A stretch of 64,000 bases of DNA, taken from the IMG/VR virus record IMGVR_UViG_2526164631_000023; one strand, given 5' to 3'. Below, piece after piece: positions 6,557-62,389 of this stretch. The position numbers and the translations under genes were made by a program. The DNA is from a virus. Its lineage: Duplodnaviria > Heunggongvirae > Uroviricota > Caudoviricetes. The first letter of the stretch is position 1. Every line of letters begins with the position of its first letter. Below the pieces are notes generated by a model. The model was given only the letters and a program-made list of their open reading frames with translations. It had not been told where the DNA came from and did not search any database.

Positions 6557-6575
6557 TGTGTTAGAAAACTAAAAT
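6557..6575 (+). promoter_or_regulatory. Operator-like motif copy a (TGTGTTAGAAAACTAAAAT)
   Basis: Member of a dispersed family of asymmetric ~19-bp sites, consensus tGTGTTAGAAA(a/t)(c/t)TAA(a/t)T. Confidence 0.45.
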
Positions 6576-6701
6576 TAAATCACATAACAACATGAGTGTT
6601 AATATATTTTATTTTACTAAACCTATTGACTAAATCACAAAGTAGGTATTGTTAGCCCGTCAAAAGAACCTTCACGCCGCGCCCGAATTTAGGGCTTAAC
6701 C

Positions 6702-8399
6702 GTGAATAAAAACATTCAGCCAGCTCGTGATCGCGAGCGCGAGATTATGAATCGGGCGGCAAGCGTCATGGCTATGACCGTCGATCCGACCACCGATGCA
6801 GCAGGCAACATGATTGCTGACCAGGCAGTAATGATGGAAAACCTGGATAAAGCAATCCAGAAAGTGCCTATGTTTGAAGGCGTAAATCCAGAGGTCGCTC
6901 GTCAGATCACTGGTGGGTGGGCTATGTCTCTGCATGAGTATAAACGTCAACATGGTCATTACCCGGCAAGTGACATCCTGGCGAACGCACACATGGCTCT
7001 TGAGCGCCTGATGACTGAATGTGCCAGTGATACCCATGAAGGCACGGGTAAGGCAATGTTTGAGTCTGTCGCGCAATCAATGCGTAGCTCTGACGGCGTA
7101 ATGAAAGTTGCTCAATATGCTGCTCTAATTCTGCCTGCCTCTCTGGGCGCTGCTACCAGTGATGCCTGTACTTTTGTTCCTTGTGATCGTGACGAGTCAA
7201 ATATTTATGAACTGGTCAACGTAGCAGGCACAAAATTCGGCACCTTCAACCAAGGTGACGAACTGAATATGCAGTCAGCTGGTGTTTATTCTCAAATGAA
7301 GCGCCTGTATGCCCTTTCCACTAAAGGGGATGGCAGCACCAAAACCTTCCAGTTCAACATCCAAAATTTTGAGGGACAATCCTGCCCGCTTCGCGCTGGT
7401 TATAACAAACTGCTGATCAACCGCAAACCGTCCAAAGTTGACGACGGCGATGGCAACCTTTATTTCAATGCTAAAGACAGCAAAGGTAATGCTTTCTCAG
7501 CGACTGCCAAAGTTGCCTATGACACTGGTGTCATTGACATTACATTTACCCAGGCTCCGCCAGAAGGTACTGAAATTGCTGTTCAGGTCGAAATTAACAT
7601 CGAGCGCAATCCAAGCCTGATTCCGGTGATCAACCAGGCTATGCGTAAGTACGAAGTTCGTCCGTCCCAGTACGTACTTGCTTCCGAACACACGGTAATG
7701 TCCGCATCCGATTTAAGCCGTGAGCACGGCCTTGAATTAGCGGCACTTCAGTTCTCCGCGATGCGCAACTGGATCTCCCATGAAACCGACATCATGCGTC
7801 TGCGCACCCTGGTATTCCATACCGTTTATGGTCGTGAATTTGATGTGGCTCTGCCGGAAGCTCAAAACTATGAGTCCTGGGTCGGTCTCCTGCGTCACGT
7901 AGTAAACGCTCTGTCTCAAGAAATGGCAAATCGTACCCTGACAACGGGTATTCGTGGCGGCTTTGCTGGTAGTGACGCCGCGAACTTCCTGCGCTCTCTG
8001 CCTCCACAGCACTTCCAGATCGCACCAGGTTACGTTCAGTCGCCGTATGTACAGTACATCGGCACCCTGTTTGGCACGATTCGTATTTACGAAGTGCCGC
8101 AACCTGTCTGTGAGCAATTCCAGGCACAGGGATATGACTTCGGGCTGGATGACATCTTCTTCTATGGGCGTGGCGAAGGCATCGGTAAAGCCGGTCTGAT
8201 TGCTGGTGATGCAGTCCCAGCAATCCCTTACGTTCACGAAACCAATCCGTCTCTCGTTAACCGTACCACTCTCTGGGGCAGTGCCATCAACGAAGTACAT
8301 CCTCGCAACGGTGAAAACTACTTCACCCGCCTGCGTCTGACTCGTGCCAAAGAAGGTGCTATCGACATGCTGACAGGCAAGGTTAACGAAAAAAAGTGA
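6702..8399 (+). CDS. Virion structural protein, candidate major head protein (565 aa)
   Basis: Large ORF opening the structural block; size close to the P1 major head protein as remembered; assignment by size and context only. Confidence 0.35.
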   Translation: MNKNIQPARDREREIMNRAASVMAMTVDPTTDAAGNMIADQAVMMENLDKAIQKVPMFEGVNPEVARQITGGWAMSLHEYKRQHGHYPASDILANAHMALERLMTECASDTHEGTGKAMFESVAQSMRSSDGVMKVAQYAALILPASLGAATSDACTFVPCDRDESNIYELVNVAGTKFGTFNQGDELNMQSAGVYSQMKRLYALSTKGDGSTKTFQFNIQNFEGQSCPLRAGYNKLLINRKPSKVDDGDGNLYFNAKDSKGNAFSATAKVAYDTGVIDITFTQAPPEGTEIAVQVEINIERNPSLIPVINQAMRKYEVRPSQYVLASEHTVMSASDLSREHGLELAALQFSAMRNWISHETDIMRLRTLVFHTVYGREFDVALPEAQNYESWVGLLRHVVNALSQEMANRTLTTGIRGGFAGSDAANFLRSLPPQHFQIAPGYVQSPYVQYIGTLFGTIRIYEVPQPVCEQFQAQGYDFGLDDIFFYGRGEGIGKAGLIAGDAVPAIPYVHETNPSLVNRTTLWGSAINEVHPRNGENYFTRLRLTRAKEGAIDMLTGKVNEKK

Positions 8400-8544
8400 T
8401 GGTGGCGAACGTGTCGGTATCACCAACGTCACTTGACGTAGATGAAGGTGAAACTATCGCCGCGAACACTTCAAAGGCACAGAAAAAACAAAGCAGAAGT
8501 AAGGCAAAAACACGCCCCTGATTAAGGGGCGTTCAGGAGAAAAA

Positions 8545-8823
8545 ATGGCAAACATTCAAGTAACTATCACGCCATCTGACGCAACAGACAAATCTTTCAC
8601 TGTTGAGTCAGATCACCCTGATATTGTCCGGGTTGATGGCACTACATGTACCGCTCTTAAGGTCGGGCAGGCAGTGCTGACAATCAAAACAAATGACGGC
8701 AATAAAACCGCACAGTGCACAGTCACTGTTAGGGAGGCACATAAAAGCGTAAGCACCGTCAGTGTTGAACCAACTACGAAAGAAGTTACCGTAGGCGATA
8801 ACTTCACGGTAAGCCAATCCTGA
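8545..8823 (+). CDS. Bacterial Ig-like (Big_2-type) domain protein, probable virion decoration
   Basis: 92 aa with beta-rich ITPSDAT..FTV..DIVRVDGTT.TALKVGQAVLTIKT..GNKTAQCTVTV pattern typical of phage Ig-like domains. Confidence 0.5.
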   Translation: MANIQVTITPSDATDKSFTVESDHPDIVRVDGTTCTALKVGQAVLTIKTNDGNKTAQCTVTVREAHKSVSTVSVEPTTKEVTVGDNFTVSQS

Positions 8824-8890
8824 TCAGAGGCTGCCCATTAACCGTGGGTAGCCTTGCCTCGTTCTCTCGCTTTAGAGGATAAGAACCAGC

Positions 8891-14028: not shown

Positions 14029-14892
14029 TTAATCTGTTGGTTTAAGTTTCGGATTCCGAGAGTGAACGATAATGAAGTTTTCACGACCTTGCTTTTCAAT
14101 GGTGCAATCGAGATAACCTATTGTTTTTAACTGGTCTATAGCTTTTTTTATCGTTCTGTTTTGCTCACTTACCGATGACATCAAGGCTAATCTTTCACGT
14201 ATTCTGGCAAATGAAATAGGTATTGGACGTGCCGGGAGGCTTTCTATAAAGGTATATATGGCCTGGGCTGCTTCTTTTTTAGGTAAAGCGCGAAGTGCGT
14301 GTTGCTGTAGAAGCACCCGATAGTCTAGCTGGAAGATTTCCCATAACTTGGAATCAGCCTCCAGTTCAACGACATCTGTTTCAAAGTCAAAATATCCCGT
14401 TTTAAGCAGGCCAGTATTGTAGCTTCCACGAGCACTTTTCCCTCTTTTGAATGAGATGCCTTTGTTGCGTAACCGACCTAAAGAATCGTGGATCGTGTTT
14501 CTTAATTTCCCATCAAGTCGCTTAGATGGAAATCCGCACGCCTTTGCAAATTCTTGAAAAGAAAGGCGAATTGTATTCGATGATAAGCCATACTTGCTAA
14601 ATGAGTAGATTACCCCAATCCAGACTTTGAAATCAGTATCCATGTCCAAGCGAGGGCCAGTGATCTTGATGTTGTCGTAGCCTTCTGCTTGAGCTATTTC
14701 CAATTTGGAAAAAACAGATGATGCATCTATCTCGTTGTTTTCACCCTGTTTTTTAGTTGGTTTAGGGACGAAAACACCAAGCCGCATAAGTGCGACAGGT
14801 TGAACAGTATTGTTCGAATTAACTGTTAATTCTTTAGCCTTGCTTTCAATGTCAGCATAAAGAATATCAGAGATAAATGACTTATCCATCAA
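14029..14892 (-). CDS. repA: Plasmid replication initiator RepA (P1 R-replicon type)
   Basis: 287 aa beginning MMDKSFISDILYADIESKAKELTVNSNNTVQPVALMRLGVFVP, closely matching P1 RepA as remembered; flanked by cognate iterons. Confidence 0.85.
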   Translation of the reverse strand: MMDKSFISDILYADIESKAKELTVNSNNTVQPVALMRLGVFVPKPTKKQGENNEIDASSVFSKLEIAQAEGYDNIKITGPRLDMDTDFKVWIGVIYSFSKYGLSSNTIRLSFQEFAKACGFPSKRLDGKLRNTIHDSLGRLRNKGISFKRGKSARGSYNTGLLKTGYFDFETDVVELEADSKLWEIFQLDYRVLLQQHALRALPKKEAAQAIYTFIESLPARPIPISFARIRERLALMSSVSEQNRTIKKAIDQLKTIGYLDCTIEKQGRENFIIVHSRNPKLKPTD

Positions 14893-14949
14893 TAAGTTAC
14901 CGTCATGTTGTGAATAAAGTTTACGACAGTGGATATCCGGCTTTTTTTC

Positions 14950-15050
14950 CCATCAGCACACATCCTACATCCCGCCAGCACACATGTAAAACCCTCCAGC
15001 ACACATATTTTTCCCGTCAGCACACATCGTTCTCCCTCCAGCACACATCT
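14950..15050. repeat. incC-like iterons: five direct CAGCACACAT-containing repeats at ~21-bp spacing upstream of repA
   Basis: Copies at about 14954, 14976, 14997, 15019 and 15039. Confidence 0.8.
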
Positions 15051-15089: not shown

Positions 15090-15160
15090 CTACGGGATCT
15101 ATTTGGTACTATATGGATCTAATCAGGATCTATATATTGGATCTATCCTGTGGATAAAAA
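15090..15160. promoter_or_regulatory. oriR core: GATC repeats and a DnaA box
   Basis: gggATCTatttggtactatatgGATCTaatcagGATCTatatattgGATCTatcc then TGTGGATAA (reverse complement TTATCCACA) at 15149-15157. Confidence 0.65.
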
Positions 15161-16079: not shown

Positions 16080-19000
16080 ATGGATATCAGCCCGTTAGTG
16101 ACGTTGAACAATTGCCACAATGGCGAGCACTCCATATGTCAAAAGCCCTGGAAGAAAAATACAAAGCTCAAGCCGGGAAACGTTGTCGCCGCTGGTAAAA
16201 GAGAGGTTATTTTGAAAGAGAATAAAGACCGTATCGCAATAATTGACGCTATTCAGGGGGCGAGCACAAACGAACTTAAGGCTCTTGCTGAGATCAAAGA
16301 CGCCATTCTCTCTGGTAGAGGGTCTATAACTCAACTTGGTGAAAATCAAGGTAAAGTAAGTCAAAGACTATCCCGTAGACTCATAGCAAGCGAACCCTAT
16401 GTCTCTGGTGATGCCAAGAATACCCAACCTAACCCATATATAAAACGCCTTCCGATGAAAAAAGGGAGGAAGCAGGTCAACAACGGAGAAGAACGTCTCA
16501 TTGTTGCAACCAACACATCAGAGCGCGTTCATTTTGCGTCATCACTCCAGTCCGCCCAAAAGTTGAAAGGTTCTGTGCCAGTAGCCGCTAATTCTGCTCC
16601 TCTTGAACCACAATCCCCCCAAAGCCAAAAAGGACCGCTTCGGGATAGTAATGGACGCTTTGTATCCCAGAAAAACAACGAAGATATAGCCAGAAAAAAA
16701 GAATGGCAGAACGCACGTAAGGCCGACGCCAAACTACAAGAAGGCTTCCTCCGGAAATTAGGCTCCATTATAGGGGTAGATGGCAATCAGTCTTCCAGTG
16801 AAGAGTCTTTAACAGATGCCGCAGGTATCGGCGCTGGTGGTCCGTTGTGGATAGCTGCTCGCGGCATGTACGACATTACTAAAGAGATCACAGGTAAAGC
16901 AGAATCTCTTAAAGAATGGATAGAAAAGGGGAAAGGTGAGGCTTCATCTTCGAAAGCGACATCACCAGCTATCACTTATCCGGCGGTGGTGAATACTCAA
17001 AAAGCAACCTCTGCAACAGCATTTAATAATGCTGTTGAGACAAAATCAGCACAAGCAGTAGAAGAGCAAACAAAAATTCTTCAGACCAATGACAACAAAA
17101 TAATTGATGGTCTGGAAAATGTCTCCGACGAAGTAGTTAAGCTACGCAAATCAGTATCTTCTGGAAATAAGTTCGGCTTAAGTGATCTCTGGAGAAATCG
17201 AGCAAGCAGAAGAAATAAAATCAATATTGGCGATCAGGCTGGTAAAAATAAACGGAACAAACCGAAAAGGAAAGGTCGCAATCTGGGGAAAAAAGCCCTT
17301 TCTGTTGGTGAAAAAGCCGCTGCCGGAAGCGCTGCTGCTGGAGCTGGTGCCGGAGCTGCAAAGACTGTTAAAACAAAGGTTAGTAAAGCCAAAGACATCA
17401 GCACCACAAGCGACGCATCTAAGGGTATTGCTAAAGAAACAAAAAACACAGCAAAGGCAGTTAAGCCAGCAGGTGTTGTTGCCGAAGAGGCCACAATTAA
17501 AACAGGTGAAACTGTTGCAAAGAAAAAAACCGAATCCGTAGCCCTCAAAAGTGCTGCAAAAATAGGTGTTAAATCAGCGGCTTCTACAGCTGCAAGAGCT
17601 ATCCCGATCATCGGATCGCTGGCTATGGCGGGATATGACGCTATAGATGGTTACACTGATACAGATGCGCAAAAGGCAGCCTTTGGATTAAGTGACGATG
17701 ATGCTGTATCCGAACAGCAAAAAACGGCTTACGCAACAGCTAATGTGCTCGATATGGGGGGCTTGGTGTCGGGCACAACGAACTTGATAGGGAAAGGAAT
17801 TTCTGCGCTAGGATTTGAAAGAGCAGGTGAAAAACTTCAGAATTTTGATACCGGAGATATTGCTCGTGGTGTTAACGGCGCGGTAGATATCAACAAATCT
17901 GTTTTTGGTAGCCTTAAGGATACATTTTTATCCACTGACGAAAACACGAAACAAGTAAAAAAAGCTGTTGAAGACGGCACCAAAAAAACTGTCGATGCGA
18001 TTCATTCTCTTGGTGAACAATTACAAGGTGGGCGTAATGGCGAGGATGGAGTTGGTGAGCACGGGTATACTTCTCCAACTGAATTTAGTGCACCTGCCAA
18101 CAACACCATTGCAGCGGATCTGAATATTGGCGGCAGCAACGCTAAAAACCGCAATTACCGAAATAATAATCTCGGCAATCTTGTTTTTGCCAACCAGGAA
18201 GGGGCGACGCTGGAATCGCCAAATGTAAAAGGTGAACAACGTTTTGCGCGATTTAACACACCTGAAGAAGGGATCAGGGCACTGGCAAACCAGGTTTCCA
18301 GCTATTACAACGGCACCAGTGCCGCAGCGGGATATCAGAAGTTACAGACGGTATCCAGCATCATTTCAAAATGGGCACCGCCAAATGAGAACAATACTAA
18401 CCAATATATTGATAACGTCAGTAAATATCTTGGTGTATCGCCTAATGAAAAAATAGATGTCAGCAAACCAGAGGTTATGACGCAATTAGTTCGTGCAATT
18501 GCGACGAAAGAAGGCGGAAATCCGGCAGTTAATAATGAGTTCATTAAGAACGCACTTGGAGCATTTAACACAAACACTGGTCGATGGGAGGGACAATTCT
18601 CTGACGAAACATTGGCGCGGATTAATAAAATTCAGAAAGAAAATGGTGGTCAGCTAATTGCCCGCGATTCGCAATATAGTGTTGGTCGCAAGGTAAAATA
18701 TGCTAATGGAAAATCTCCAGCTCAACCAGTTTTGAATGCCGTTCCGACAGCAACACAACAGCCAATTGAGGTTGCACAACATGCCCAGGCAGTCAAAAAG
18801 CCACAAAAAACAGGTAACCAACCACAACCGATTAATCCAGAGAACGCTGATGTTAATACCGGCTCTCCATCGAGTTTGCTTGAGCGGTTAATCGCAATAA
18901 ATGAAAGCGGAATCAGTGGTGCAAGTAATTTATTTGGCGGCGCGGCTACCAGCCTTGCTGGAACAAGTCTGGACCTGGTAAAGGATTTTGCGTTAGCTAC

Positions 19001-39164: not shown

Positions 39165-39184
39165 AAGTTAAATTTCTAACATAG
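39165..39184 (-). promoter_or_regulatory. Operator-like motif copy g (reverse: CTATGTTAGAAATTTAACTT)
   Basis: Matches dispersed operator consensus. Confidence 0.4.
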
Positions 39185-40368: not shown

Positions 40369-40387
40369 TGTGTTAGAAAATTAATTT
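40369..40387 (+). promoter_or_regulatory. Operator-like motif copy b (TGTGTTAGAAAATTAATTT)
   Basis: Heads a ~400-bp non-coding leader upstream of the small ORF and Rha-like gene. Confidence 0.45.
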
Positions 40388-40731: not shown

Positions 40732-40956
40732 ATGGTTAATGCCAATCCTTGCTCGCGCCCGGAATTTATCTGGCGTTTCCACTCCCTGCAAAAACACTGC
40801 GATCACTTCGCAATTGCCGCAACTGAAAAAGAAGCCCGTTCTCTGATCCCTGATCAACATGGCGTCCTGACTGGCCGTTTCTCTACTTCATCACAACCAA
40901 ACACTAATCCTTGGTATCGCAATATTACCAATCCCGGAATTGCGGAGGCACACTGA
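40732..40956 (+). CDS. Small ORF (~74 aa) whose stop overlaps the start of the Rha-family gene (P1 icd-like arrangement)
   Basis: ATG at 40732 with SD gagg; TGATG overlap at 40954-40958. Confidence 0.3.
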   Translation: MVNANPCSRPEFIWRFHSLQKHCDHFAIAATEKEARSLIPDQHGVLTGRFSTSSQPNTNPWYRNITNPGIAEAH

Positions 40957-41663
40957 TGGATATCTGCATTCTTGAAAAGCCATCAATGACCAGCATTGAG
41001 ATCGCGGAGCTGGTGGGAAAACGTCATGACAATGTGAAGCGTACCATTGAAACATTAGCCGAATCCGGCGTTATTGTTCGTCCTCAAATTGAGGATGAAC
41101 CAAAAATAGATGTAATGGGGCGTTCTCGATTAATTCAGGTGTTCCGATTTAGCGACGAGCAAGGCAAACGAGACAGTATCATTGTAGTCGCACAGCTTTG
41201 TCCTGAGTTTACTGCCCGGCTGGTGGACCGCTGGCGCGAACTGGAAGAACAAGCACGCCAGCCGTTGACCGAAATAGAGATGATCGCCGCAATGGCTGCA
41301 AATGCAGTTCAGCAGCAAAAGCGGCTTCATGTTGTTGAGTCAAAGGTTAGCCAGGTGGTAGAAACCGTCGAGCAAATCAAGAAGGGCAACATGCCGGAAG
41401 GTTACATTGGCTACCGCCAGCTGGCGGCAAAATGCGGCCTGACCGAAGCCAAATGTCGCAACCTGGTTAACGCTTACCGGATTCCCACCGATACACATGA
41501 GTTTTTAACTCCAGAGGGGGTATTGTCGCGTCGTTCCATCGTGGCCTTATCTCCCTTCATGAATGCTTTTAACCGGATGATGTCGGAGGCTGAACACCGA
41601 GGAAAACGCTGGTATCACCCCAAAATGGGGCAATTCCAGGTGATCGGTTGGGGAGGTGAGTGA
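40956..41663 (+). CDS. Rha-family phage regulatory protein / antirepressor-like
   Basis: N-terminal MTSIEIAELVGKRHDNVKRTIETL typical of Rha domain; ATG at 40956 with SD ggagg. Confidence 0.6.
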   Translation: MDICILEKPSMTSIEIAELVGKRHDNVKRTIETLAESGVIVRPQIEDEPKIDVMGRSRLIQVFRFSDEQGKRDSIIVVAQLCPEFTARLVDRWRELEEQARQPLTEIEMIAAMAANAVQQQKRLHVVESKVSQVVETVEQIKKGNMPEGYIGYRQLAAKCGLTEAKCRNLVNAYRIPTDTHEFLTPEGVLSRRSIVALSPFMNAFNRMMSEAEHRGKRWYHPKMGQFQVIGWGGE

Positions 41664-50270: not shown

Positions 50271-50287
50271 GTGTGTTAGAAAAATAG
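50271..50287 (+). promoter_or_regulatory. Operator-like motif copy c (GTGTGTTAGAAAAATAG)
   Basis: Upstream of the VRR-NUC gene. Confidence 0.4.
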
Positions 50288-50433
50288 CGCGAAAGAGAAG
50301 GCGTCGCAGTGAATATTCTGAAACATCCCCACATGCCGCAGCTCTTAGAGAACTGGAGAAAAACCCAGATCTAATCAAAAGGAACCATGAGCATTACGAG
50401 CAGGTTCGCGTCCTGGACTGGTTGTATCGCAAT

Positions 50434-50730: not shown

Positions 50731-50744
50731 ACGGAGAAATCGTT

Positions 50745-51241: not shown

Positions 51242-51248
51242 TTGCATA

Positions 51249-51275: not shown

Positions 51276-51315
51276 TTTATTGCATCTTCCGATACCGTCA
51301 TCAAACTAATAAAAT

Positions 51316-51333
51316 ATGTTAGAAAACTAATTT
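51316..51333 (+). promoter_or_regulatory. Operator-like motif copy d (ATGTTAGAAAACTAATTT)
   Basis: Immediately upstream of gene at 51340. Confidence 0.4.
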
Positions 51334-51339
51334 AAAAAA

Positions 51340-52563: not shown

Positions 52564-52564
52564 T

Positions 52565-52582
52565 GTGTTAGAAATCTAAAAT
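52565..52582 (+). promoter_or_regulatory. Operator-like motif copy e (GTGTTAGAAATCTAAAAT)
   Basis: Start of the non-coding region upstream of the tRNA cluster. Confidence 0.4.
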
Positions 52583-52720
52583 CACAATTCGAATGTATTG
52601 ATTGTGAAGATAACTTAACATAGAATTTTCCTTGCTGGTGGGCGGTACCCACGTTTCGCTTGCTGGGCTTGATAGTCACTTATTGGTTATTGTTCGCCCA
52701 CCAGCATTTAACAAATTAAA

Positions 52721-52737
52721 GTGTTAGAAATGTATAG
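52721..52737 (+). promoter_or_regulatory. Operator-like motif copy f (GTGTTAGAAATGTATAG)
   Basis: Second copy in the same non-coding region. Confidence 0.4.
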
Positions 52738-53798
52738 TAATGCAAGAGCACGCTTTGGCACCGTGCAGGCCAAAGTTCAGCAGGTTTAGTGCGGAAAGTG
52801 GTTTCAGAGAGAGCACTTTGCGGAGTAAACGACAATACATGTTGAGCCACGGAAGGTCTTTTTAAGGTGTTCATTGATGATGGTCCGGCAGAGAGTAACG
52901 GTACATGCTGCATCTAATCATCAATGCACATCTTCAACATTAAGGAGGCATAGGGATTTTTGTGGCGGTTACCTTTTGCCCTGAGTCTCCTTAATGTTGC
53001 GGTAATGCACCTATGCGGATGTGGCCTTGCATTGTGTCTTGAAAGAATGGGGTAAGGCCGGGGATATCCCCAGGGGGAGGCACCCCCGCTGCAACGAACA
53101 GCCACAGACGGCAGTCGAGTGATGGAAACGTGTAAAGACTTTAAACCTCGTTACGGCTGGCGTGGCAAACGCGACAACCGAGACAGAGCGGTGACGGGCG
53201 GAGAGAGTGCCGCATCAAGAAAGAAGCCGACTTGTGATCCCTTTCAGCGGGCATTTGAAAGTGAATCCAGCTCAGGCAGTCGGCTTCTTTCTTGTGTGAG
53301 ATGTAGCGTATTTGCCCATCTTCGGGTGGGCTTTTTTAGGGTTTTCGTCATGGTTAGCGACTTTGCGGCGGTTTAGAAACTGACCATTAAAGTAAATGCA
53401 AACGATGATCTGATGATGGTAGCGGCCTAAGAAGCCAGACGCCACGGGGTATGAGTCGTCCCCCGTCAAAAAAATCGACCGCAGAGTGTCCCCGTCTGTG
53501 TATTAGGGAACGGGGAGGCATAACAGGCAAGGGCGCTGGTGTGATTAACCAGATGAATGAGAAGGGTCAGGTCTTTCTGGTCAGCGCCCTTACCTGTTGC
53601 GTCCTTCCCGCGTAACAGCCATTGCTTAATGGCATCCTGGGAGAACTTCTTGTAACGGGTATATCCCGTCATGCTGAAGGCGCTAATCACGCTGGAAGCC
53701 AGGGTTGTGCATCCCCTGTTACCGAATTGCAGCCAGGGCGCGGTGCGCCGAAAAGCATACGGAGGTGGAAGCCCTCGCCGGAGACGTACCCGGCAAGT

Positions 53799-53874
53799 GA
53801 TGGTGTAGCTCAGTAGGATAGAGCAGCAGCCTTCTAAGCTGTCGGTAGGTGGTTCGAATCCACCCACCATCGCC
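53799..53874 (+). tRNA. tRNA-Arg (anticodon TCT)
   Basis: Hand-folded cloverleaf: acceptor gatggtg/caccatc, T-arm ggtggTTCGAATccacc, anticodon loop cTTCTAa, 3' CCA encoded. Confidence 0.65.
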
Positions 53875-53879
53875 AATTT

Positions 53880-53967
53880 AGGGGAGTTAGTCCGTAGGGG
53901 TAGCGGGGTAGACTGTAAATCTACTGTCATTGCGACTCGGGTGGTTCGACTCCATCACTCCCCACCA
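53880..53967 (+). tRNA. tRNA-Tyr (anticodon GTA), long variable arm
   Basis: Acceptor ggggagt/actcccc, anticodon stem-loop gtaga-cTGTAaa-tctac as in E. coli tRNA-Tyr, T-loop TTCGACT, CCA encoded; D-arm irregular. Confidence 0.55.
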
Positions 53968-53971
53968 AATT

Positions 53972-54047
53972 GCCGGTTTAGCTCAGTTGGTAGAGCAGTC
54001 GCTTTGTAAGCGAATGGTCAGCGGTTCGATCCCGTTAACCGGCACCA
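53972..54047 (+). tRNA. tRNA-Thr (anticodon TGT)
   Basis: Acceptor gccggtt/aaccggc, D-arm gctcAGTTGGTAgagc, anticodon loop tTTGTaa, T-loop TTCGATC, CCA. Confidence 0.65.
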
Positions 54048-54501
54048 ACACAACAGGTAAGAGCATTTGTAGAGTTCGACTCTCTACCGTGGGCTTTTTC
54101 CCGCGATGCGAGCCATAAATGCTCTTACCGTTGTGATGAAGTGCAGCTCTTTGAAGCAACCAGAAGATAAGCATCTGGCTTCACAACATAAACCGCAGGA
54201 ACGACCAATAAACGGTAGTCCGTATGGAGAACACCCCGTTGAGGAAGAGGTCTGGCCGGAACCGTAACCGGCACTACAACGTTGAGAACACTGGCGTAAC
54301 GGGGTCATATCCCAATCTACGAATAAATGTTGCGTTGCAGCGTGACAACCAGTGTTCTCAACATTGTGGTGAATGCGCAGGCTGATGCGCGAAAGACATT
54401 GCAGCTATTGCGGAAAAGAGCTGTTCGGCGGGGCAATTAAACGCCCGTGAGAGTCTGAAATAACCGCAAGCCGGAGATCAGCACCGGTCGCCACAATAAC
54501 G

Positions 54502-54588
54502 GGAGAGTAGGGAGCATGGTGCTCAAGCGGTCTTGAAAACCGTCCCATTGCGCAAGCGATGATGGTTCGATTCCATTACTCTCCGCCA
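54502..54588 (+). tRNA. tRNA-Ser (anticodon TGA), long variable arm
   Basis: Acceptor ggagagt/actctcc, anticodon stem-loop gcggt-cTTGAaaa-accgt (as in E. coli serT), T-loop TTCGATT, CCA. Confidence 0.55.
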
Positions 54589-54879
54589 GTGCAACGTTAA
54601 GAGTATTTGGCTAATTAAGCGAATGCCGGAAGCAGAACCGGATCACCAAATGCGTACAGGCGTCATCGCCGCCCAGCCAGCCAAGTGCTCTTACCATTGC
54701 GGTGAATGCGGCTAAGCGCACGCGGAACAGTTAAAACAGTAAAGGTGGTCTTTTTACTGGCGTAACGAGAATCCATAAGTGATCCGGCGTTAATTGTTAA
54801 CTGGTTAACGTCACCGGGAGGCACCCGGCACCGCAACCTAACAGCAATGGCGTTTTGTCTTAAAAGGTGGCTGCAAGTG

Positions 54880-55008
54880 ATGGATTTTTGGGCGTTTGCC
54901 GATAAAAACCCGGAGTGGACATTATTGTTTCTGCTGGTGGTTGCATACGGGGTAGAGCAAGCGGCAAAAGCCTTACGCGGTTCTGGCAAAAAGCGTAAGC
55001 GTAATTAA
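54880..55008 (+). CDS. Candidate small hydrophobic peptide (42 aa) between tRNA-Ser and tRNA-Ile
   Basis: SD aaggtgg 9 nt upstream of ATG; MDFWAFADKNPEWTLLFLLVVAYGVEQAAKALRGSGKKRKRN. Confidence 0.25.
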   Translation: MDFWAFADKNPEWTLLFLLVVAYGVEQAAKALRGSGKKRKRN

Positions 55009-55017
55009 CAGTAATCT

Positions 55018-55093
55018 GGCCCTTTAGCTCAGTGGTTAGAGCGGGCGACTCATAATCGCACGGTCACCGGTTCAAGTCCGGTAGGGGCCACCA
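55018..55093 (+). tRNA. tRNA-Ile2 type (anticodon CAT, ileX-like)
   Basis: ggccctttagctcagtggttagagc..gactCATAAtcgc..ggttcaagtcc..aggggccacca is near-identical in layout to E. coli ileX as remembered. Confidence 0.7.
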
Positions 55094-55545
55094 CATTTGG
55101 TTGTAACACGGCGTATGGCACATGCGTCGTTAGCGGTCTGGTGTAGCTGTTAGGTACCTTTTACTAACACTGCATGGGCACACCAGGTAGCCGGAATGTG
55201 CAAGCCCCGTTCATAGCGTCGGACTGCGGATTCACCATCCTGGCGATTCGGTGTGACAGCCGGAAGAGCACGGCGCACAACAGGAAAAGGCGTTTAATTA
55301 GCGTGAGCGCCGTTTCCGTTGTGGTAATTGCGGCTATGCGCTCGTGACGAAGCCATTTTCATTCACTACGTTCTGATAAGTGACGTCGCCAGGAGTGGCT
55401 AACCTGGCAGGTGGAGGCACCACCGCCACAACTCCTTTCAATTCATCATATAGCCGCTCAGGCTGTACCCCTTAATTAATACGAAGTTACGACATCACTA
55501 CCGGTACTTCCGGGGGATAGTCGCGCGTGTAAAAAAGGAGACGTT

Positions 55546-56121
55546 ATGTTAATGGCGAACGATAACGCATATGCAGAAGAAGATCTCATTTTGAGTGACT
55601 TCATAGGGAAGCGGGAACGCTGGACCAAAAAGCGAGAGGAACTTTACGCCTCATTAGTTCGCAAAGGCGTCAATATCGAAACCGCACAGAGCGGTGATAT
55701 GACAGTGGTAAGCGTGGATTTGCACGGTGTAAGCGTGTCAGCAATCAATCATGAGCCATACGTTGCGTTATCCGAGTCAATGGTAAGGTTAGTTAAGTTC
55801 CTGAAGTACACAGAAGCGAATAATGTAATCATTGGCAAAAAGAATATCCCTTTTTCCTCGGCTTTTTACTGGATGATGAAAGGGCTTGATGCCCGGCGGA
55901 CATCATGGCCTAAAGGGAGCTATATATCGATGTTCCGTGGCAGCATTGGCAGCAAAGAAAAGCTCTTCGAATTCTTGCCGGAAGAGGCATTCGATATTGT
56001 GGAAGGGTGCGATGTGATGGTGATGCCTCGCCTGGTAATGATGAATGGTGATTTACAGGCGCAGACAGACTGGTTTGCAACTGGTGTGGATATTATCGCG
56101 ACTGACTGGGAGGCTTTCTGA
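55546..56121 (+). CDS. Hypothetical protein (191 aa), C-terminal ..ATDWEAF
   Basis: ORF; C-terminus resembles small phage DUF-type domains. Confidence 0.3.
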   Translation: MLMANDNAYAEEDLILSDFIGKRERWTKKREELYASLVRKGVNIETAQSGDMTVVSVDLHGVSVSAINHEPYVALSESMVRLVKFLKYTEANNVIIGKKNIPFSSAFYWMMKGLDARRTSWPKGSYISMFRGSIGSKEKLFEFLPEEAFDIVEGCDVMVMPRLVMMNGDLQAQTDWFATGVDIIATDWEAF

Positions 56122-56513
56122 TGTACGGGACTACCAAATTAAGCACTCAACAGGCCACCAATATGGAGTGGTCTATCGCTAACTGTAAGATCGTGTCATG
56201 CAATGCCACGCGTACTGATGTGGGCCATAAAAGCACTATAACAGGCTATCTAGTAATGACCACCAGGGGGATGAGGGTTAGATTTCGCTGGAAAGCAGAG
56301 CAAGTAACGCCATTCAGAGAGCCATCAATGCCGCTGCAGGTTGAGCAGGATTATCTATGTTTACCAGAAATAGATGGAGGAATGCTGGTGGAGTCTGATG
56401 GTAGTAAGGCTGATTTTGAAGCCAATTTGAAGCTGGCACAGGCCGTAATCAATAGTTATCGCGGACAGTGGATCGCAAAAGTGAAACATGTTGTTCGTTT
56501 GTCTCGCTGGTAG
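56121..56513 (+). CDS. Hypothetical protein (130 aa)
   Basis: ATG overlaps previous stop. Confidence 0.3.
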   Translation: MYGTTKLSTQQATNMEWSIANCKIVSCNATRTDVGHKSTITGYLVMTTRGMRVRFRWKAEQVTPFREPSMPLQVEQDYLCLPEIDGGMLVESDGSKADFEANLKLAQAVINSYRGQWIAKVKHVVRLSRW

Positions 56514-56620
56514 TGTTAGGTATTTAATATTAATTTTCTAATATAATCATCTTTTTACCAGTCTATACAGTTTTAACATTCTCATTATCATCCCCTCGGT
56601 CATTTCCTGCCGGGGGATTA

Positions 56621-57013
56621 ATGGAACAAATCAGCAGCGCAGAAATTGCGGATATCATGATCAGGGCTGACTGCTATCTGACAGTCACTGAAATTACCAC
56701 TCTCGCCAAAGAAAAATACCCTCATCTCCATGTTTCACGAGTAAGTGTAACTAACATCATTCGTCATTTTGTTCGTTCAAGCAGGGCAATCTGTGAGCTT
56801 GATGATCGTGTTTACCCACGAAAATACTGGTTGCATGGCCTGAACGGATATCAGTTCAAGGTGCGTGGGCGAACCCCTGAATACGGCAGTTTACTGGTTA
56901 AAAACTGTAGCAGGAAATCAGTCGAACAGGCGCGAAAAGAGCAACGAGAGCTGGTGGACATGGCGAATAAGCTGTGGAATGCCGCCGTTAAAAAGCGTGG
57001 TGTTGCTTTATGA
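56621..57013 (+). CDS. Hypothetical protein (130 aa), possibly DNA-binding
   Basis: ORF upstream of and overlapping (ATGA) pacA start; degenerate operator-like sequence at 56511-56550. Confidence 0.3.
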   Translation: MEQISSAEIADIMIRADCYLTVTEITTLAKEKYPHLHVSRVSVTNIIRHFVRSSRAICELDDRVYPRKYWLHGLNGYQFKVRGRTPEYGSLLVKNCSRKSVEQARKEQRELVDMANKLWNAAVKKRGVAL

Positions 57014-58374
57014 GTCTGGTTAATTGGGAGGAGCACCGCGCCCGCTTTATAGCGTTGCGTGAAGAAAAAGGGATCACTGTAAAGGAATACTGTGAGGAGC
57101 ATGGCCTTAGCTTCAATACAGCCAGAAAGCATCTCAATATGAAAAAAAATGAGGTGCGGTCGCAGGTAAAGACAACAAAAAAAAGCACCAAATCACCTGA
57201 AAAAAAACGGGCAGGAAGAGCAACAAAAAAGCAGGAAGAGGGTGCAGAAAAAACAAAATTTACAGAAATTGACAATTCGCAGGGCGCAGGTTCTTTCCGA
57301 AGTATGCCGAGAAAGAAAACTTCGGATCATGAAAATAATTTAAATAATAACAATGAGATAAAAGAATCCGTCAGGAGATCATTGCGCGAAAAAATGGCGA
57401 AAATGATCCCCGAAGAAGATAAAAGTGCCCCAAAAATTGAGGGATCTTCTGCAATGATCCCTGACGGTGCTGTGCAGCGTGCCACATTGCCAACTACGAA
57501 TGTGGCTCGCGATATGATGAAGAACGGCGCAGAAGAACACCTGCGGTTAGCAATTCAAATGGCGCAAGAGCGCGCACTTCAGTATCAAAGCATTGTTGAT
57601 CAGGAGGCCGAACGTCTACAGGCGGAAATAGACACCTTGGGCGATAAAGAGCCAGAAGGAATGCACCCTGGGCAGCGCCTTCTCGGTCTAATCAGTGACG
57701 CGGCCTACTACATGAATGATTTTATCAGTAGGTTGGCAGCTATATATCAGTCCGAACAAAAGCTGCGACAGGGGGATGAAAAGCTTCGTCAGAGCGCTCG
57801 CCAGCAAGCATTCAAAGAGGCTGAGGCCAGAGAAAAACTCGAATTAGCACGCCTACAGGCCGAACAGCGTGGCAAAGAGATTGAATATCGCATTGGCGCT
57901 GACGCACGCGCAGCCAGAGTTATCGCCGCCGCTATACGTATGCGTGAGCGCGAGGAACTGGATGATATCGGTGTTGCTGAATACATCGAGCGCCAGGGTG
58001 TCAGCGTCCCGGCTATCCTCGCGGCGCGCGCGGCGAAAGCTATCACTCTTCTCGAACCACCTGTTTCTGACGTCAATGATGTTGATGATGAACAGCTGGA
58101 CAAAGAGGCAAGGGAGTTTGCAACGCTTCAGGCTAACCATCCGCTATGGCTGGCAGAGCGCCGGGCGGATGTGGCAACCATTGTTGAAGAATTGGGTTGC
58201 GGAGATTACGACCGCAATGGCGAGCGTAAAGCTGGAGAATTCGAGGCCAACGACGAAGAGCTGGATATTGACCCTTCGGCAACGGCTGAAATTTACGGTG
58301 ATTATGATGCATCTGATGCAGGGTATGACGCCGGAGATGATGATATCGCGATAGAACCGCCGGAGGATGATTAA
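57010..58374 (+). CDS. pacA: Terminase small subunit, PacA-like (454 aa)
   Basis: Directly upstream of and overlapping the large terminase gene; N-terminal HTH-like region, acidic C-terminus; contains a GATC cluster. Confidence 0.5.
   Translation: MSLVNWEEHRARFIALREEKGITVKEYCEEHGLSFNTARKHLNMKKNEVRSQVKTTKKSTKSPEKKRAGRATKKQEEGAEKTKFTEIDNSQGAGSFRSMPRKKTSDHENNLNNNNEIKESVRRSLREKMAKMIPEEDKSAPKIEGSSAMIPDGAVQRATLPTTNVARDMMKNGAEEHLRLAIQMAQERALQYQSIVDQEAERLQAEIDTLGDKEPEGMHPGQRLLGLISDAAYYMNDFISRLAAIYQSEQKLRQGDEKLRQSARQQAFKEAEAREKLELARLQAEQRGKEIEYRIGADARAARVIAAAIRMREREELDDIGVAEYIERQGVSVPAILAARAAKAITLLEPPVSDVNDVDDEQLDKEAREFATLQANHPLWLAERRADVATIVEELGCGDYDRNGERKAGEFEANDEELDIDPSATAEIYGDYDASDAGYDAGDDDIAIEPPEDD
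57320..57605. other. Candidate pac site: cluster of six GATC-containing repeats inside pacA
   Basis: GGATCATG, AGATCATT, TGATCCCC, GGATCTTC, TGATCCCT, TGATCAGG within ~280 bp. Confidence 0.3.
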
Positions 58375-59882
58375 TGGCTGGCGGGCGCAAGGTTAAATGC
58401 GTCACCAGAGATCCACGCTGGCGCGATATGGTAATCAAATACCGCTACAACTTTACCCAGGCTGTTGTCGATATTTTTGGGATGTTCCCCTCCCACCAGC
58501 AGCAGCAGATCATTCAGTCCGTACAGGAAACGGGGAGTAGGACTACCGTCACGTCCGGACACGGAACGGGGAAGTCGTCCCTTACCGCGATGTTGCTGTT
58601 GATTTTTATGATCCTGTTCCCCGATGCCCGTGTCATCATTGTTGCTAACAAGATAGGCCAGGTAAAAACAGGCGTATTCAAATACGTTAAACAGTATTGG
58701 GCGAATGCAGTTAAGCGTCATGGGTGGTTGCAGACCTATTTTGTCCTCTCTGACACCATGTTTTATGAGCGCTCCCGTAAGGGGATTTGGGAAGTTCTCT
58801 GCAAAGGTTATCGACTCGGCAACGAAGAAGCGCTGGCGGGGGAACACGCGGCACATTTGCTTCTAATTCTGGATGAAGCATCTGGTATATCTGATAAGGC
58901 GATCGGCGTAATGACCGGTGCTCTTACTGAAGAAGATAACCGGATGTTGATGCTATCCCAGCCAACAAGGCCAAGTGGTTATTTCTACGATTCGCACCAT
59001 TCTCGAGCAAAAACCCCAGGCAACCCGAAAGGGATCTGGACAGCAATTGTTCTTAACTCGGAAGAATCACCGTTCGTCACACCACAATTCATCAAGGAGA
59101 AGCTTCTGGAATATGGCGGGCGCGATTCTATTGAGTACATGGTCAAGGTGCTTGGTCAGTTCCCACGAGAAATTAACGGCTATTTGCTTGGTCGTGATGA
59201 ATGCGATCGCGCTGCTCGCCGCAAGGTGTTGTTGGAGAAAAACTGGGGATGGGTGGCAACGGCTGACGTTGGTAATGGGCGAGATAAGTCGGTCCTCAAC
59301 ATCTGCAAGGTATCAGGTCACAGGGATAAGCGGCGCGTTGTTAACTTTAAGGTAATGGAGATGCCTGGCACTATGGACCCATTGGCCTTTGCTGACTTCA
59401 TATATAACGAATGTACGCCGGAAAAATACCCGAATATAACAATCGCGGTTGATGCTGATGGTTTTGGTTCTGATACGTGTGCGCAGTTGGTGCGTCGTGG
59501 TGCGAACCCGGTACGTATTCGGTGGGGAAAACCCATGTTTGCGAACAAAGACAGGGAGCGATTTGTTAATCAGCGTGCCTACGCAAATATTATGGCGCGT
59601 GATGCCATAAAGTCAGGGCGTATGCGGATAGACAGTGACCCTAAAACGGCAGAGCAAGCGTCAAAAATCCCCTTTTTACTGAATGAAGAGGGGAAAATGG
59701 CGATGATGCGCAAAGAGCACATGCGGCAAAAGCTAAACATCAAATCGCCTGACCGATGGGATACCTACTGCTTCACTATGCTGGTGGACTATGTGCCTGC
59801 TAATGAAGATATTGGTGCCGAAATGGCAACTTTCCGAGATCAGGTTCTGGCGGATATCGAAATGCCGGATCTGGATATATAA
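58374..59882 (+). CDS. pacB: Terminase large subunit, PacB-like (502 aa)
   Basis: Walker A TSGHGTGKSS, Walker B LLILDEASGI, C-terminal nuclease region with acidic residues (AVDADGFG). Confidence 0.8.
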   Translation: MAGGRKVKCVTRDPRWRDMVIKYRYNFTQAVVDIFGMFPSHQQQQIIQSVQETGSRTTVTSGHGTGKSSLTAMLLLIFMILFPDARVIIVANKIGQVKTGVFKYVKQYWANAVKRHGWLQTYFVLSDTMFYERSRKGIWEVLCKGYRLGNEEALAGEHAAHLLLILDEASGISDKAIGVMTGALTEEDNRMLMLSQPTRPSGYFYDSHHSRAKTPGNPKGIWTAIVLNSEESPFVTPQFIKEKLLEYGGRDSIEYMVKVLGQFPREINGYLLGRDECDRAARRKVLLEKNWGWVATADVGNGRDKSVLNICKVSGHRDKRRVVNFKVMEMPGTMDPLAFADFIYNECTPEKYPNITIAVDADGFGSDTCAQLVRRGANPVRIRWGKPMFANKDRERFVNQRAYANIMARDAIKSGRMRIDSDPKTAEQASKIPFLLNEEGKMAMMRKEHMRQKLNIKSPDRWDTYCFTMLVDYVPANEDIGAEMATFRDQVLADIEMPDLDI

Positions 59883-59884
59883 AA

Positions 59885-59901
59885 GCCCCGCGGTGCGGGG
59901 C
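59885..59901. terminator. Hairpin between convergent pacB and repressor-position gene
   Basis: gccccgc ggtg cggggc. Confidence 0.4.
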
Positions 59902-59910
59902 CGGTGGTGA

Positions 59911-60948
59911 TTACCAGAGCTTTGCGGCGTGCTGCGTTTGGGGGAATGTGTATCCGTAACGTTCTTCGATTGCTTTGCCGTATTTTTTACGCGCTTCATT
60001 CAGTTTGATGCCGGTCAGGTCGTCTCCAGAGGCCATCATTACGTCTAACAATTCCAGATCCATTTTATCCAGCCTTGCCATTGCTTCACGCGATGTACGA
60101 ATCTTACGTTCAATGATATGGCGAATGGCCGGATCGGCATCCTCCAGCATCTTAGCGGATTTCTGCTTAAGGTTTTCGTTGCGAATATCGATGTTCCTTA
60201 AGATGTACGACTTCGCAACGTAGCTTGGCTGGTGTTTTTCCAGGTCACGAACACGATATAAGTTAAAATCGCCGAGAAGGCTGCAAGGTACCGATTCGAC
60301 GCCAGAATAAATTGTAATGCTCCGGCGTTCACCAACATTATTGACAACGGGGATCGTTGTCTTCGGTAGTCTTGCGAAAACCAATGCGCCATGTGCGCCA
60401 ACTCTAAAGCGAGAAAGGGCATTGCTGCCTTCGATGTTTGTTGTCAGCACAACATCTGTATATGCCTCTTTACGCGCCCGGTAGATCTCGCCTTCAGGCT
60501 CAGCTTCAAAGAAGCGCTGTTCTTCTTCAAGAGCACCTACGATTTGAGAAAAAACCCTATTTTTCAGGCTTTTCTTTATGATTTTGTCGTATTTTTTGAG
60601 CAATTGCTCACGTGTAAATGTACGTGTTGTTGTAGCGCTTTGCACAACAACATGCGTGCTTTGATTGGTGTCCTCAATGATGAATGGGATCGGAGAATAT
60701 ACAGACTCAACAATGTTCGACGCTTTGCCGTCGGCATCGCGACACATGTCAACGAAGGCTTTCCATTCAGCAAGACATTTTTCAGCTTCTTCTAATATGT
60801 TTTGGTCATGCGTTAATGCAACATGGCGGAATTCCTCGCCAGCATAACTGGTATCATGGAAAACAGAGTTTGCGACCACCAGCTCTTTCCACCGTTCAGC
60901 GGTTTGCAGGAACCGTTTGTACTCTTTCTCGATCGACTTCTTACTCAT
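59911..60948 (-). CDS. Protein at the P1 c1 position (345 aa): candidate master repressor
   Basis: Divergent from the recombinase across the rox region; operator-like motif overlaps its upstream region; no sequence-level confirmation. Confidence 0.3.
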   Translation of the reverse strand: MSKKSIEKEYKRFLQTAERWKELVVANSVFHDTSYAGEEFRHVALTHDQNILEEAEKCLAEWKAFVDMCRDADGKASNIVESVYSPIPFIIEDTNQSTHVVVQSATTTRTFTREQLLKKYDKIIKKSLKNRVFSQIVGALEEEQRFFEAEPEGEIYRARKEAYTDVVLTTNIEGSNALSRFRVGAHGALVFARLPKTTIPVVNNVGERRSITIYSGVESVPCSLLGDFNLYRVRDLEKHQPSYVAKSYILRNIDIRNENLKQKSAKMLEDADPAIRHIIERKIRTSREAMARLDKMDLELLDVMMASGDDLTGIKLNEARKKYGKAIEERYGYTFPQTQHAAKLW

Positions 60949-60960
60949 TATTCCTACTCG

Positions 60961-60980
60961 ATTTAGTTTTCTAACATAAA
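60961..60980 (-). promoter_or_regulatory. Operator-like motif copy h (reverse: TTTATGTTAGAAAACTAAAT)
   Basis: 13 bp upstream of the repressor-position gene start. Confidence 0.45.
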
Positions 60981-61157
60981 ATTACTATGACAAATTTATG
61001 TCGAATAACAGAGTGAGTAAAGGATAGAGCTGTGATTTTTTGTCATCAATTTTAGAAAACCAACTGTATAAACCACACTTCGCAAATTAAAGACCATGAA
61101 GGCAACGTGTTACTGGTCAGAATCAATCTGTGATGGATTAAAAAAATCGCCATTTTA

Positions 61158-61189
61158 TAACTTTAAATAATTGGCATTATTTAAAGTTA
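61158..61189. other. rox-type recombination site (Cre/lox-like 14-4-14 palindrome)
   Basis: TAACTTTAAATAAT TGGC ATTATTTAAAGTTA: perfect 14-bp inverted arms around 4-bp spacer; reverse complement of the rox sequence as remembered. Confidence 0.8.
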
Positions 61190-61341
61190 GGCTATAATCA
61201 TGTGTAGATGAACAGTGTTGACATCACTGAAAATACGTGCCTCGAATCAAAGGCTTGTATTTTGAAAATTAACTTATAGCTACCCTGTCATTTTTATATT
61301 TTTCGCGTAGCGTCATCTGTATATAGAGGTCAAATAGTTTC

Positions 61342-62370
61342 ATGAGTGAATTAATTATCTCTGGCAGTTCCGGTGGTTTTCTGCGCAACATTGGCAAAGA
61401 GTACCAGGAAGCCGCAGAAAACTTTATGCGGTTCATGAATGACCAGGGGGCTTATGCGCCGAATACTCTGCGCGACCTCCGGTTGGTGTTTCATTCCTGG
61501 GCGCGCTGGTGTCACGCTCGCCAGCTTGCCTGGTTTCCGATCTCACCAGAAATGGCCCGCGAGTATTTTCTTCAGCTGCATGATGCCGATCTGGCTTCGA
61601 CCACCATTGATAAGCACTACGCCATGCTGAACATGCTGCTTTCGCATTGTGGCCTTCCGCCACTTTCGGATGATAAAAGTGTTTCTCTGGCTATGCGGCG
61701 CATCCGGCGCGAAGCGGCAACTGAAAAAGGCGAACGAACAGGCCAGGCTATACCGCTTCGGTGGGACGATCTGAAACTGCTCGACGTCCTGTTGTCCAGG
61801 TCAGAACGGCTGGTAGACCTGCGCAACCGGGCTTTTCTCTTTGTTGCATACAATACGCTGATGCGTATGTCGGAAATATCGCGTATTCGTGTAGGTGATC
61901 TGGACCAAACAGGTGACACTGTCACGCTACATATTTCACACACGAAGACAATAACGACCGCCGCCGGGCTTGATAAGGTGCTTTCCCGTCGCACTACTGC
62001 TGTGCTGAATGACTGGCTGGATGTTTCCGGGCTTCGTGAACATCCTGACGCGGTGCTGTTCCCGCCGATACACCGTAGCAATAAGGCCAGGATTACGACA
62101 ACGCCCCTTACTGCACCTGCAATGGAGAAAATATTCAGCGACGCCTGGGTGTTGCTGAATAAAAGGGATGCCGCGCCAAACAAAGGGAGATACCGGACGT
62201 GGACCGGGCATAGTGCTCGTGTCGGGGCCGCTATCGATATGGCTGAAAAGCAGGTGTCTATGGTGGAGATCATGCAGGAAGGAACCTGGAAGAAACCGGA
62301 AACACTTATGCGGTATCTGCGCCGTGGCGGTGTGTCTGTGGGGGCTAATAGCCGCTTGATGGATTCGTAA
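61342..62370 (+). CDS. dre: Tyrosine site-specific recombinase of the Cre family (Dre-like)
   Basis: 342 aa with Cre-like blocks VSLAMRRIRRE, AFLFVAYNTLMRMSEISRIRVGDL, WTGHSARVGAAIDMA, LMRYLR (catalytic R..HxxR..Y); adjacent to rox-type site. Confidence 0.85.
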   Translation: MSELIISGSSGGFLRNIGKEYQEAAENFMRFMNDQGAYAPNTLRDLRLVFHSWARWCHARQLAWFPISPEMAREYFLQLHDADLASTTIDKHYAMLNMLLSHCGLPPLSDDKSVSLAMRRIRREAATEKGERTGQAIPLRWDDLKLLDVLLSRSERLVDLRNRAFLFVAYNTLMRMSEISRIRVGDLDQTGDTVTLHISHTKTITTAAGLDKVLSRRTTAVLNDWLDVSGLREHPDAVLFPPIHRSNKARITTTPLTAPAMEKIFSDAWVLLNKRDAAPNKGRYRTWTGHSARVGAAIDMAEKQVSMVEIMQEGTWKKPETLMRYLRRGGVSVGANSRLMDS

Positions 62371-62371
62371 A

Positions 62372-62389
62372 TTAAATTTCTAACACATC
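62372..62389 (-). promoter_or_regulatory. Operator-like motif copy i (reverse: GATGTGTTAGAAATTTAA)
   Basis: Immediately downstream of recombinase stop. Confidence 0.4.

Follow-up and report, generated by a model that had tools for sequence, protein, structure and literature searches.

A dispersed asymmetric motif as the probable operator of the C1-type repressor of a D6-like plasmid prophage

A short asymmetric motif recurs in the intergenic DNA of a 64,000-nucleotide stretch of viral DNA (IMG/VR record IMGVR_UViG_2526164631_000023; the window, meaning the whole stretch analysed), which is a D6-like, P1-related plasmid prophage, and it raises the question of which protein, if any, reads these sites. 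The initial annotation had listed nine good copies and two weaker ones and had proposed a network of operators for a C1-like master repressor, with a word unlike that of phage P1. Our study suggests that the motif, with the consensus t-RTGTTAGAAAWYTAAnn-t, probably serves as operator for the D6-type C1 repressor (59911..60948), because its statistics, synteny, conservation and co-divergence with C1 point this way and because its main rival, a late promoter, could be set aside.

All nine good copies were found where they had been placed, and their excess over chance was evident against a background of 100 dinucleotide-preserving shuffles. The word GTGTTAGAAAWYTAAWT had 7 matches in the window with up to 2 mismatches (0.13 expected; 0/100 shuffles reached 7) and 10 with up to 3 mismatches (1.46 expected), a count that no shuffle reached either. 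The two weaker copies fared differently, as that near 56511 is a real inverted pair upstream of lpa, whereas that near 935 has 5 mismatches and was dropped as an instance of the motif. The window is 99.97–99.99 % identical over its whole length to the E. coli plasmid NZ_CP066033.1, and over 50000–63000 its identity is 97.6 % to phage D6 and essentially complete to the plasmid. Scanning the whole element (the window plus the rest of the plasmid, 95.5 kb) gave 18 half-sites at 13 loci, with an information content of 18.5 bits over the 17-bp core, in which TTAG at core positions 4–7 was invariant in 18/18 half-sites. As a T is also conserved at −1 and at +18, the upstream flank being merely A/T-rich in general, a length of about 19 bp is fair, and as only 4/17 positions are self-complementary the motif is asymmetric, both as first described. 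Plasmid iterons aside, it is the sole dispersed word to stand out among the frequent 10- and 12-mers.

According to the open reading frame (ORF) map and annotations, every copy lies between genes, including those claimed at the c4/ant-like region (40370) and at the gene in the repressor position (60961..60977). There is one exception of sorts, as the 50273 site falls inside the long version of the pmgM-like ORF in the D6 record, for which GTG 50311 is the better start. The same sites were found in phage D6, whose GenBank records carry no annotated operators or promoters, while giving P1-homologue gene names (c1 at 59911..60948 on the minus strand, dre, lpa, pacA/B, pmgS, pmgM, darB, repL, icd, pro, prt and others). 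The annotated P1 record, which gives C1 operators and late promoters, was used to compare positions, and 11 of the 13 loci correspond to places where P1 has an annotated C1 operator (Table 1). Copies paired tail to tail always span 32 bp overall, at lpa in the window and at ppp/DUF968, ref and rdgC in the rest of the element, and relatives have pairs of this length too, at their lpa, ppp/DUF968, ref and post-pmgS loci. Seven of the nine single copies are oriented toward the downstream gene at leader-like distances, and four copies lie immediately 3′ of stop codons in the antisense orientation (after dre, pro, ref and ppp).

The product of 59911..60948, put forward in the initial annotation as the repressor, does belong to the C1 family. 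It matches phrog_1678 at an E-value of 2e-169, P1 C1 being in the same PHROG 1678, its homologues carry PF27008 (Phage_P7_repressor_C1), and its gene is syntenic with that of P1, beside pacB and a Cre-like recombinase. Pairwise identity to P1 C1 is only 21 % (E 2e-8), so a different operator word is to be expected. About 130 plasmids in PLSDB encode this type of C1, and the word could be followed among relatives as C1 diverges. Plasmids in which C1 is 80, 69 and 68 % identical carry the word at the same positions, where it stands out as conserved islands in spacers that have otherwise diverged, the c1 site among them, and TGTTAGAAA was retained across C1 identities of 44–100 %. In contigs with C1 at 51, 48 and 44 % identity, TGTTAGAAAA was kept and the 3′ half altered. 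Elements of Citrobacter, Leclercia and Pantoea, with C1 at approximately 30 % and Lpa at 35–41 % identity, have the word CCTTAGAAT(T)nnnnGTTA; the Citrobacter locus (L012) holds six exact copies of CCTTAGAAT, compared to 0.31 expected and none in the window, and all six are syntenic with sites of the present element (rdgC, ref, after the recombinase, lpa, after pmgS, and pro–repL). P1 has neither TGTTAGAAA nor CCTTAGAAT, and at a C1 identity of 21 % shows a third word, ATTGCTCTAATAAATTT. By this comparison of sequences the putative operator word tracks the C1 clades, while its positions stay fixed.

One of the relatives (L009) is Salmonella Typhi pK91, a conjugative IncFIB resistance plasmid that holds, at 18558–21038, a D6-type c1–dre–dut fragment that still has an operator on either flank. 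In pK91 the lytic genes were lost to IS26 and lpa is gone, the site in front of c1 being conserved.

Several individual sites have surroundings that recall those of P1. The site on the repL side adjoins the palindrome AGTGTATTTATATACACT and three GATC sites (39183–39235, plus strand), similar to the Dam sites beside the operator at P1 OrepL/PkilA. At the head of the immI-like region, a predicted −35 element (TTGATG, 40386–40391) abuts the 3′ end of the operator as it does at P1 Oc4/P2c4, and Rfam models place c4-a1b1 at 40477–40529 and C4 RNA at 40598–40683, so that the order of operator, predicted −35, a1b1 targets and C4 RNA reproduces the P1 layout. The site in front of c1 overlaps, by eye, a candidate promoter (TTGTCA at 60993–60988, 17 nt, AAAACT at 60970–60965), and a conserved TTTACT-17-TAAATT lies just upstream; autoregulation of c1 is proposed for this operator. 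The weak second copy in the c1–rox intergenic region has a core, TTTTCTAA, that is invariant in four relatives, and the site directly after dre has kept its position and orientation in all relatives, including the distant ones with the CCTTAGAAT word. The 6558 site is 14 nt away from the start codon (ATG) of the leftward gene 6151..6543, the capsid gene on its other side having its own candidate late promoter at 6632–6652. The inverted pair upstream of lpa has a predicted promoter nearby (TATACA-16-TATCAT, 56564–56591). Over the lpa Shine–Dalgarno sequence (ATG 56621) there is a hairpin, CCCCTCGG...CCGGGGG (56592–56616, plus strand), conserved in three relatives, which may be an extra translational control of the late activator.

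Table 1. Putative C1 operators, the c1 gene and candidate late promoters, with counterparts in P1
Feature	Position	Strand	Sequence	Context	P1 counterpart
c1 gene (C1-family master repressor, 345 aa)	59911..60948	−		annotated c1 in D6 records	
Putative operator	6558..6574	+	GTGTTAGAAAACTAAAA	divergent region, 6151..6543 (−) / capsid gene 6702..8399 (+)	
Putative operator	39166..39182	−	ATGTTAGAAATTTAACT	between pro-like gene and repL-like lytic replication gene, by GATC cluster; syntenic in L008, L012	OrepL with Dam sites
Putative operator	40370..40386	+	GTGTTAGAAAATTAATT	exact match; head of immI-like region (c4 RNA, icd, antirepressor)	Oc4
Putative operator	50273..50289	+	GTGTTAGAAAAATAGCG	upstream of pmgM-like/VRR-NUC gene, likely start GTG 50311	O26 (Op82), ahead of pmgL–pmgM
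Putative operator	51316..51332	+	ATGTTAGAAAACTAATT	upstream of pmgS (ATG 51355), after terminator 51248–51273	OpmgR (OpmgRa, OpmgRb)
Putative operator	52565..52581	+	GTGTTAGAAATCTAAAA	2 nt past pmgS stop; syntenic in L007, L008, L010, L012, L014	
Putative operator	52721..52737	+	GTGTTAGAAATGTATAG	3 mismatches; upstream of tRNA/tci region; conserved in L007, L008	Oban/OpmgT; Obanab precedes tRNA–tci–ban operon
Putative bivalent operator	56513..56544	both		inverted pair 56513–56529 (+), 56528–56544 (−); upstream of lpa 56621..57013	Olpa
Putative operator	60961..60977	−	ATGTTAGAAAACTAAAT	12 nt ahead of c1 ATG	Oc1
Weak second copy	61049..61065	+	ATTTTAGAAAACCAACT	3 mismatches; c1–rox intergenic region, orientation opposite to c1 site	
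Putative operator	62370..62386	−	GTGTTAGAAATTTAATT	directly after stop of dre (Cre-like recombinase); 57 nt before orf2–orf3–dut operon (TTG 62444)	Oref/Omat, downstream of cre
Putative operator	outside window			ref	Oref
Putative operator	outside window			ppp/DUF968	Oppp
Putative operator	outside window			rdgC–dam	Odmt
Candidate late promoter	6632–6652	+	AAATCACA-N7-TAnnnT		
Candidate late promoter	22648–22668	+	AAATCACA-N7-TAnnnT		
Candidate late promoter	31177–31197	+	AAATCACA-N7-TAnnnT		
Candidate late promoter	34960–34980	+	AAATCACA-N7-TAnnnT		
Candidate late promoter	36407–36427	+	AAATCACA-N7-TAnnnT		
Candidate late promoter	42414–42434	−	AAATCACA-N7-TAnnnT		
Candidate late promoter	42458–42478	+	AAATCACA-N7-TAnnnT		
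Candidate late promoter	52579–52599	+	AAATCACA-N7-TAnnnT	after pmgS	

Could the sites serve another DNA-binding protein of the element instead? Other putative DNA binders are encoded, such as the Rha-like product of 40911..41663 or a helix–turn–helix protein elsewhere, and C1 is named here as the putative binder on comparative grounds. We regard such a protein as distinctly unlikely, given that the positions mirror the C1 regulon of P1 almost one for one, that the Rha/Ant-type protein of P1 is an antirepressor and not an operator binder, and that even pK91, a mosaic remnant that has lost lpa and the lytic genes but still has c1–dre, conserves the site ahead of c1.

A core-promoter element shared by early genes, with no repressor binding to it, is an explanation that we consider quite improbable. 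The motif contains TGnTAGAAA, which fits an extended −10 except for its last base, the TAGAAT of the distant clade would make a good −10, and the direction and leader-like spacing of most single copies are those of a promoter. However, the last base of the hexamer is A in 17 of the 18 copies and C in the other, whereas a −10 hexamer would need T there, and conservation extends about 8 bp beyond it. The fixed 32-bp inverted pairs occur where there is a gene on one side only, as at lpa, and four copies face antisense directly after stop codons. Inspection by eye showed a fixed −35 ahead of the motif at c1 and nowhere else, so that a fixed promoter module can be discounted; the predicted −35/−10 pairs stand at variable offsets, overlapping the site at c1, with the −35 abutting it at c4, upstream of the pair at lpa, and at pmgM with a predicted promoter (50221–50248) that puts the site at about +18. 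Furthermore, a repressor of the C1 family must have operators, for which there is no other dispersed motif, and a word that overlaps promoters, as the operator of P1 does at PkilA, is compatible with repressor binding. We conclude that the motif is an operator that sometimes overlaps promoter elements, in the manner of PkilA.

That the motif might instead be the late promoter of D6-type phages, a −22-type box plus −10 activated by Lpa as in P1, had some initial appeal. The window has no P1 late box (AAGTGACTT), so that the D6 Lpa must use another word, RTGTTAGAAA followed by 2 nt and TAAWWT is loosely like the 9-bp box, 4 nt and −10 of P1, and the capsid gene has one copy upstream. The element does encode an Lpa homologue (PF25716), which is 31 % identical to P1 Lpa. 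A second motif, AAATCACA-N7-TAnnnT, was found to fill the late-promoter role, with 8 matches in the window (1.62 expected) and two further matches outside it. Those in the window lie upstream of R, lydA, ddrB, prt, darB, gene 23 and a gene for a peptidoglycan hydrolase, with one after pmgS that overlaps the 3′ end of the 52565 operator. They thus stand ahead of tail-fibre, lysis, head, portal and capsid genes as well as the hydrolase gene and darB, at the positions of P1 LPs, LPdar, LPpro, LPlyz and LP23. It is a candidate for the Lpa-dependent late promoter of D6-type phages, which leaves the dispersed motif as operator. The P1 late promoters read AAGTGACTT-N4-TAnAAT, so the box-plus-(−10) motif differs at the same gene positions, and it stays similar in distant relatives (L011 and L012) in which the operator word has changed. 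The P1-type late box ACAAGTGACTT was also tried and was not enriched in the window (15 matches compared to 17.6 expected). The dispersed motif, by contrast, is missing from the morphogenesis and lysis operons and occurs at c1, lpa itself, c4–ant and repL, and neither tail-to-tail pairs nor antisense copies pointing into the 3′ ends of genes make sense as late promoters. A late-promoter role for it is therefore very improbable. Chance matches, or relics of duplicated DNA without function, are scarcely credible even for an A+T-rich motif in A+T-rich intergenic DNA, as no shuffle reached the observed counts, the flanks of the copies are unrelated to one another and the sites are conserved islands across relatives.

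Some observations weigh against C1 as the reader of these sites, or against a close copy of the P1 circuit. C1 and Lpa diverge in parallel, and no natural swaps between them are evident from the identity bands, so covariation alone cannot single out C1. The 6558 site is the only locus in the window with no clear P1 counterpart. No credible ORF for coi was seen upstream of c1, and the lxc position, after darB–ulx, holds an 86-aa ORF (orf13, 49839–50099, plus strand) with no similarity to Lxc, remote homologues having been searched for in neither case; Lxc has likewise been reported as not detected (PMC6799933). The circuit may accordingly differ from that of P1. The −10-like character of the motif and the direction of most single sites count here too, as they would allow the motif a promoter component, and the overlaps with promoters depend on predicted promoter positions.

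If the motif is nevertheless the C1 operator, the following mechanism can be proposed, in which we infer the identity of the binder, the stoichiometry and the repression. By analogy with P1, one C1 molecule would sit on each asymmetric site and two on each 32-bp inverted pair, where the bound repressor would occlude or block the sigma-70 promoters of its targets. In the window these would be c1 itself, lpa, the c4–icd–antirepressor operon, repL, pmgM, pmgS, the tRNA/tci operon and the orf2–dut operon, and outside it ref, ppp/DUF968 and rdgC–dam. With lpa, the late-gene activator, repressed, the AAATCACA-N7-TAnnnT late promoters would stay silent and the element would persist as a plasmid.

A number of further features were observed in the window and its relatives. 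Relative to NZ_CP066033.1 the window has four 1-bp deletions (39816, 61147, 8489 and 33381), that at 39816 breaking the repL-like gene into two frames, and it lacks the IS100 that the plasmid carries in a head gene (32–34 kb) and has the tail-fibre invertible segment (24.4–30.5 kb) in the opposite orientation. Annotation of the near-identical plasmid gives a full glutamine-tRNA ligase gene (glnS) at 1–860 (minus strand) and five tRNA genes at 53799–55093 (plus strand; Arg-tct, Tyr, Thr, Ser-tga and Met-cat). Repeats of CCAGCACACAT (ATGTGTGCTGG on the opposite strand) at 14930–15050 and 15090–15150, with the 10-mer present 10 times in the window, adjoin a RepB-type initiator gene (14029..14892, minus strand) and are followed by a GATC cluster; they look like the iterons of a plasmid origin. 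Two genes upstream of lpa, 55546–56121 (plus strand) encodes a Tad2-like (Thoeris anti-defence 2) domain (PF11195, E 1e-9), a family also flagged in relatives L014–L016. Chi words (GCTGGTGG / CCACCAGC) rank among the commonest 10-mers of the related plasmid prophages L008, L010, L011 and L012.

The finding most likely amounts to the same design as that of P1 written in another DNA word, a useful though mostly expected result; nothing is overturned, because a C1 homologue would be expected to have operators of its own. A full-text literature search for the motif word and for D6 operators returned nothing relevant, and an earlier description in the D6 genome paper is possible. E. coli, Salmonella and Shigella commonly harbour D6-like phage-plasmids, which can carry accessory genes, and the operator word and its regulon would define the immunity specificity of the group, predict which genes are silent in lysogens and offer a repressor/operator pair orthogonal to that of P1 for engineering. 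The three related words (P1, D6-type and Citrobacter/Pantoea-type) at the same genomic positions form a natural series in which the joint change in specificity of a monomeric repressor and its roughly 20 scattered sites could be studied.

Comparison with other systems extends to the fold of the repressor. A structural model of C1 had Tus as its sole fold match in the PDB (E 3e-8 to 1e-6), at template-modelling scores of only 0.34–0.45, and sequence searches found no PDB relative of C1 and no similarity between C1 and Tus. Predicted beta strands contain the residues that are invariant in the C1 family (R41, R157, R159 and H186). The match is compatible, at the level of a model, with one protein per asymmetric operator, as in Tus–Ter, where a monomer clamps an asymmetric site of about 21–23 bp as a polar roadblock and one protein per site is likewise supposed for C1. 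In contrast, Tus arrests replication forks and is not a gene regulator, and its homology to C1 is unproven. A likeness of the operator to TerB (ATGTT..CTAAA) was tried and was unconvincing (mean alignment score 7.27 compared to 6.61 ± 0.36 for shuffles), and a full-text literature search returned no paper linking C1 and Tus. It is conceivable, though rather unlikely, that the C1 repressors of P1, P7, D6 and their relatives share the Tus fold, one monomer clamping each ~19-bp operator with its orientation mattering, such that the antisense copies after the stops of dre, pro, ref and ppp are polar roadblocks to read-through transcription or replication forks rather than simple promoter occluders.

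The parallel with lambda CI/Cro is one of logic, with a self-regulating master repressor keeping the lytic promoters silent, as is proposed here; lambda operators, however, are symmetric, bound by dimers and gathered at two loci, whereas D6-type sites are asymmetric and scattered genome-wide. P1 is the closest system. It shares with the D6-type a homologous repressor and dispersed, asymmetric, intergenic sites of 17–19 bp, numbering 22 per genome in P1 and P7, and a common target set of c1, lpa, c4–ant, repL, pmg genes, ref/mat, ppp, dmt and the tRNA/ban operon. P1 too has monovalent sites alongside bivalent inverted operators (Obanab), reverse-oriented operators right behind stop codons (Omat and Oppp) and some sites beside late promoters. 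The two differ in C1 length (345 aa in the D6-type compared to 283 aa in P1), in the geometry of the pairs (32 bp with a 2-bp overlap, compared to 28 bp with a 6-bp overlap at Obanab), in an extra D6-type site beside the capsid gene (6558) that has no equivalent in P1, and above all in the word. The P1 consensus quoted in the initial annotation was right, being ATTGCTCTAATAAATTT (P1 record; PMC8546580); it is not the over-represented motif in the window, and TGTTAGAAA is absent from P1. The reverse complement TTCTAA[CA]YAAATT was considered as a homologue of the P1 operator CTCTAATAAATTT and dropped, the likeness being loose and needing a 2-bp insertion. As judged from the sequences, the D6-type is a separate specificity within the C1 family, and not the P1/P7 immunity type.

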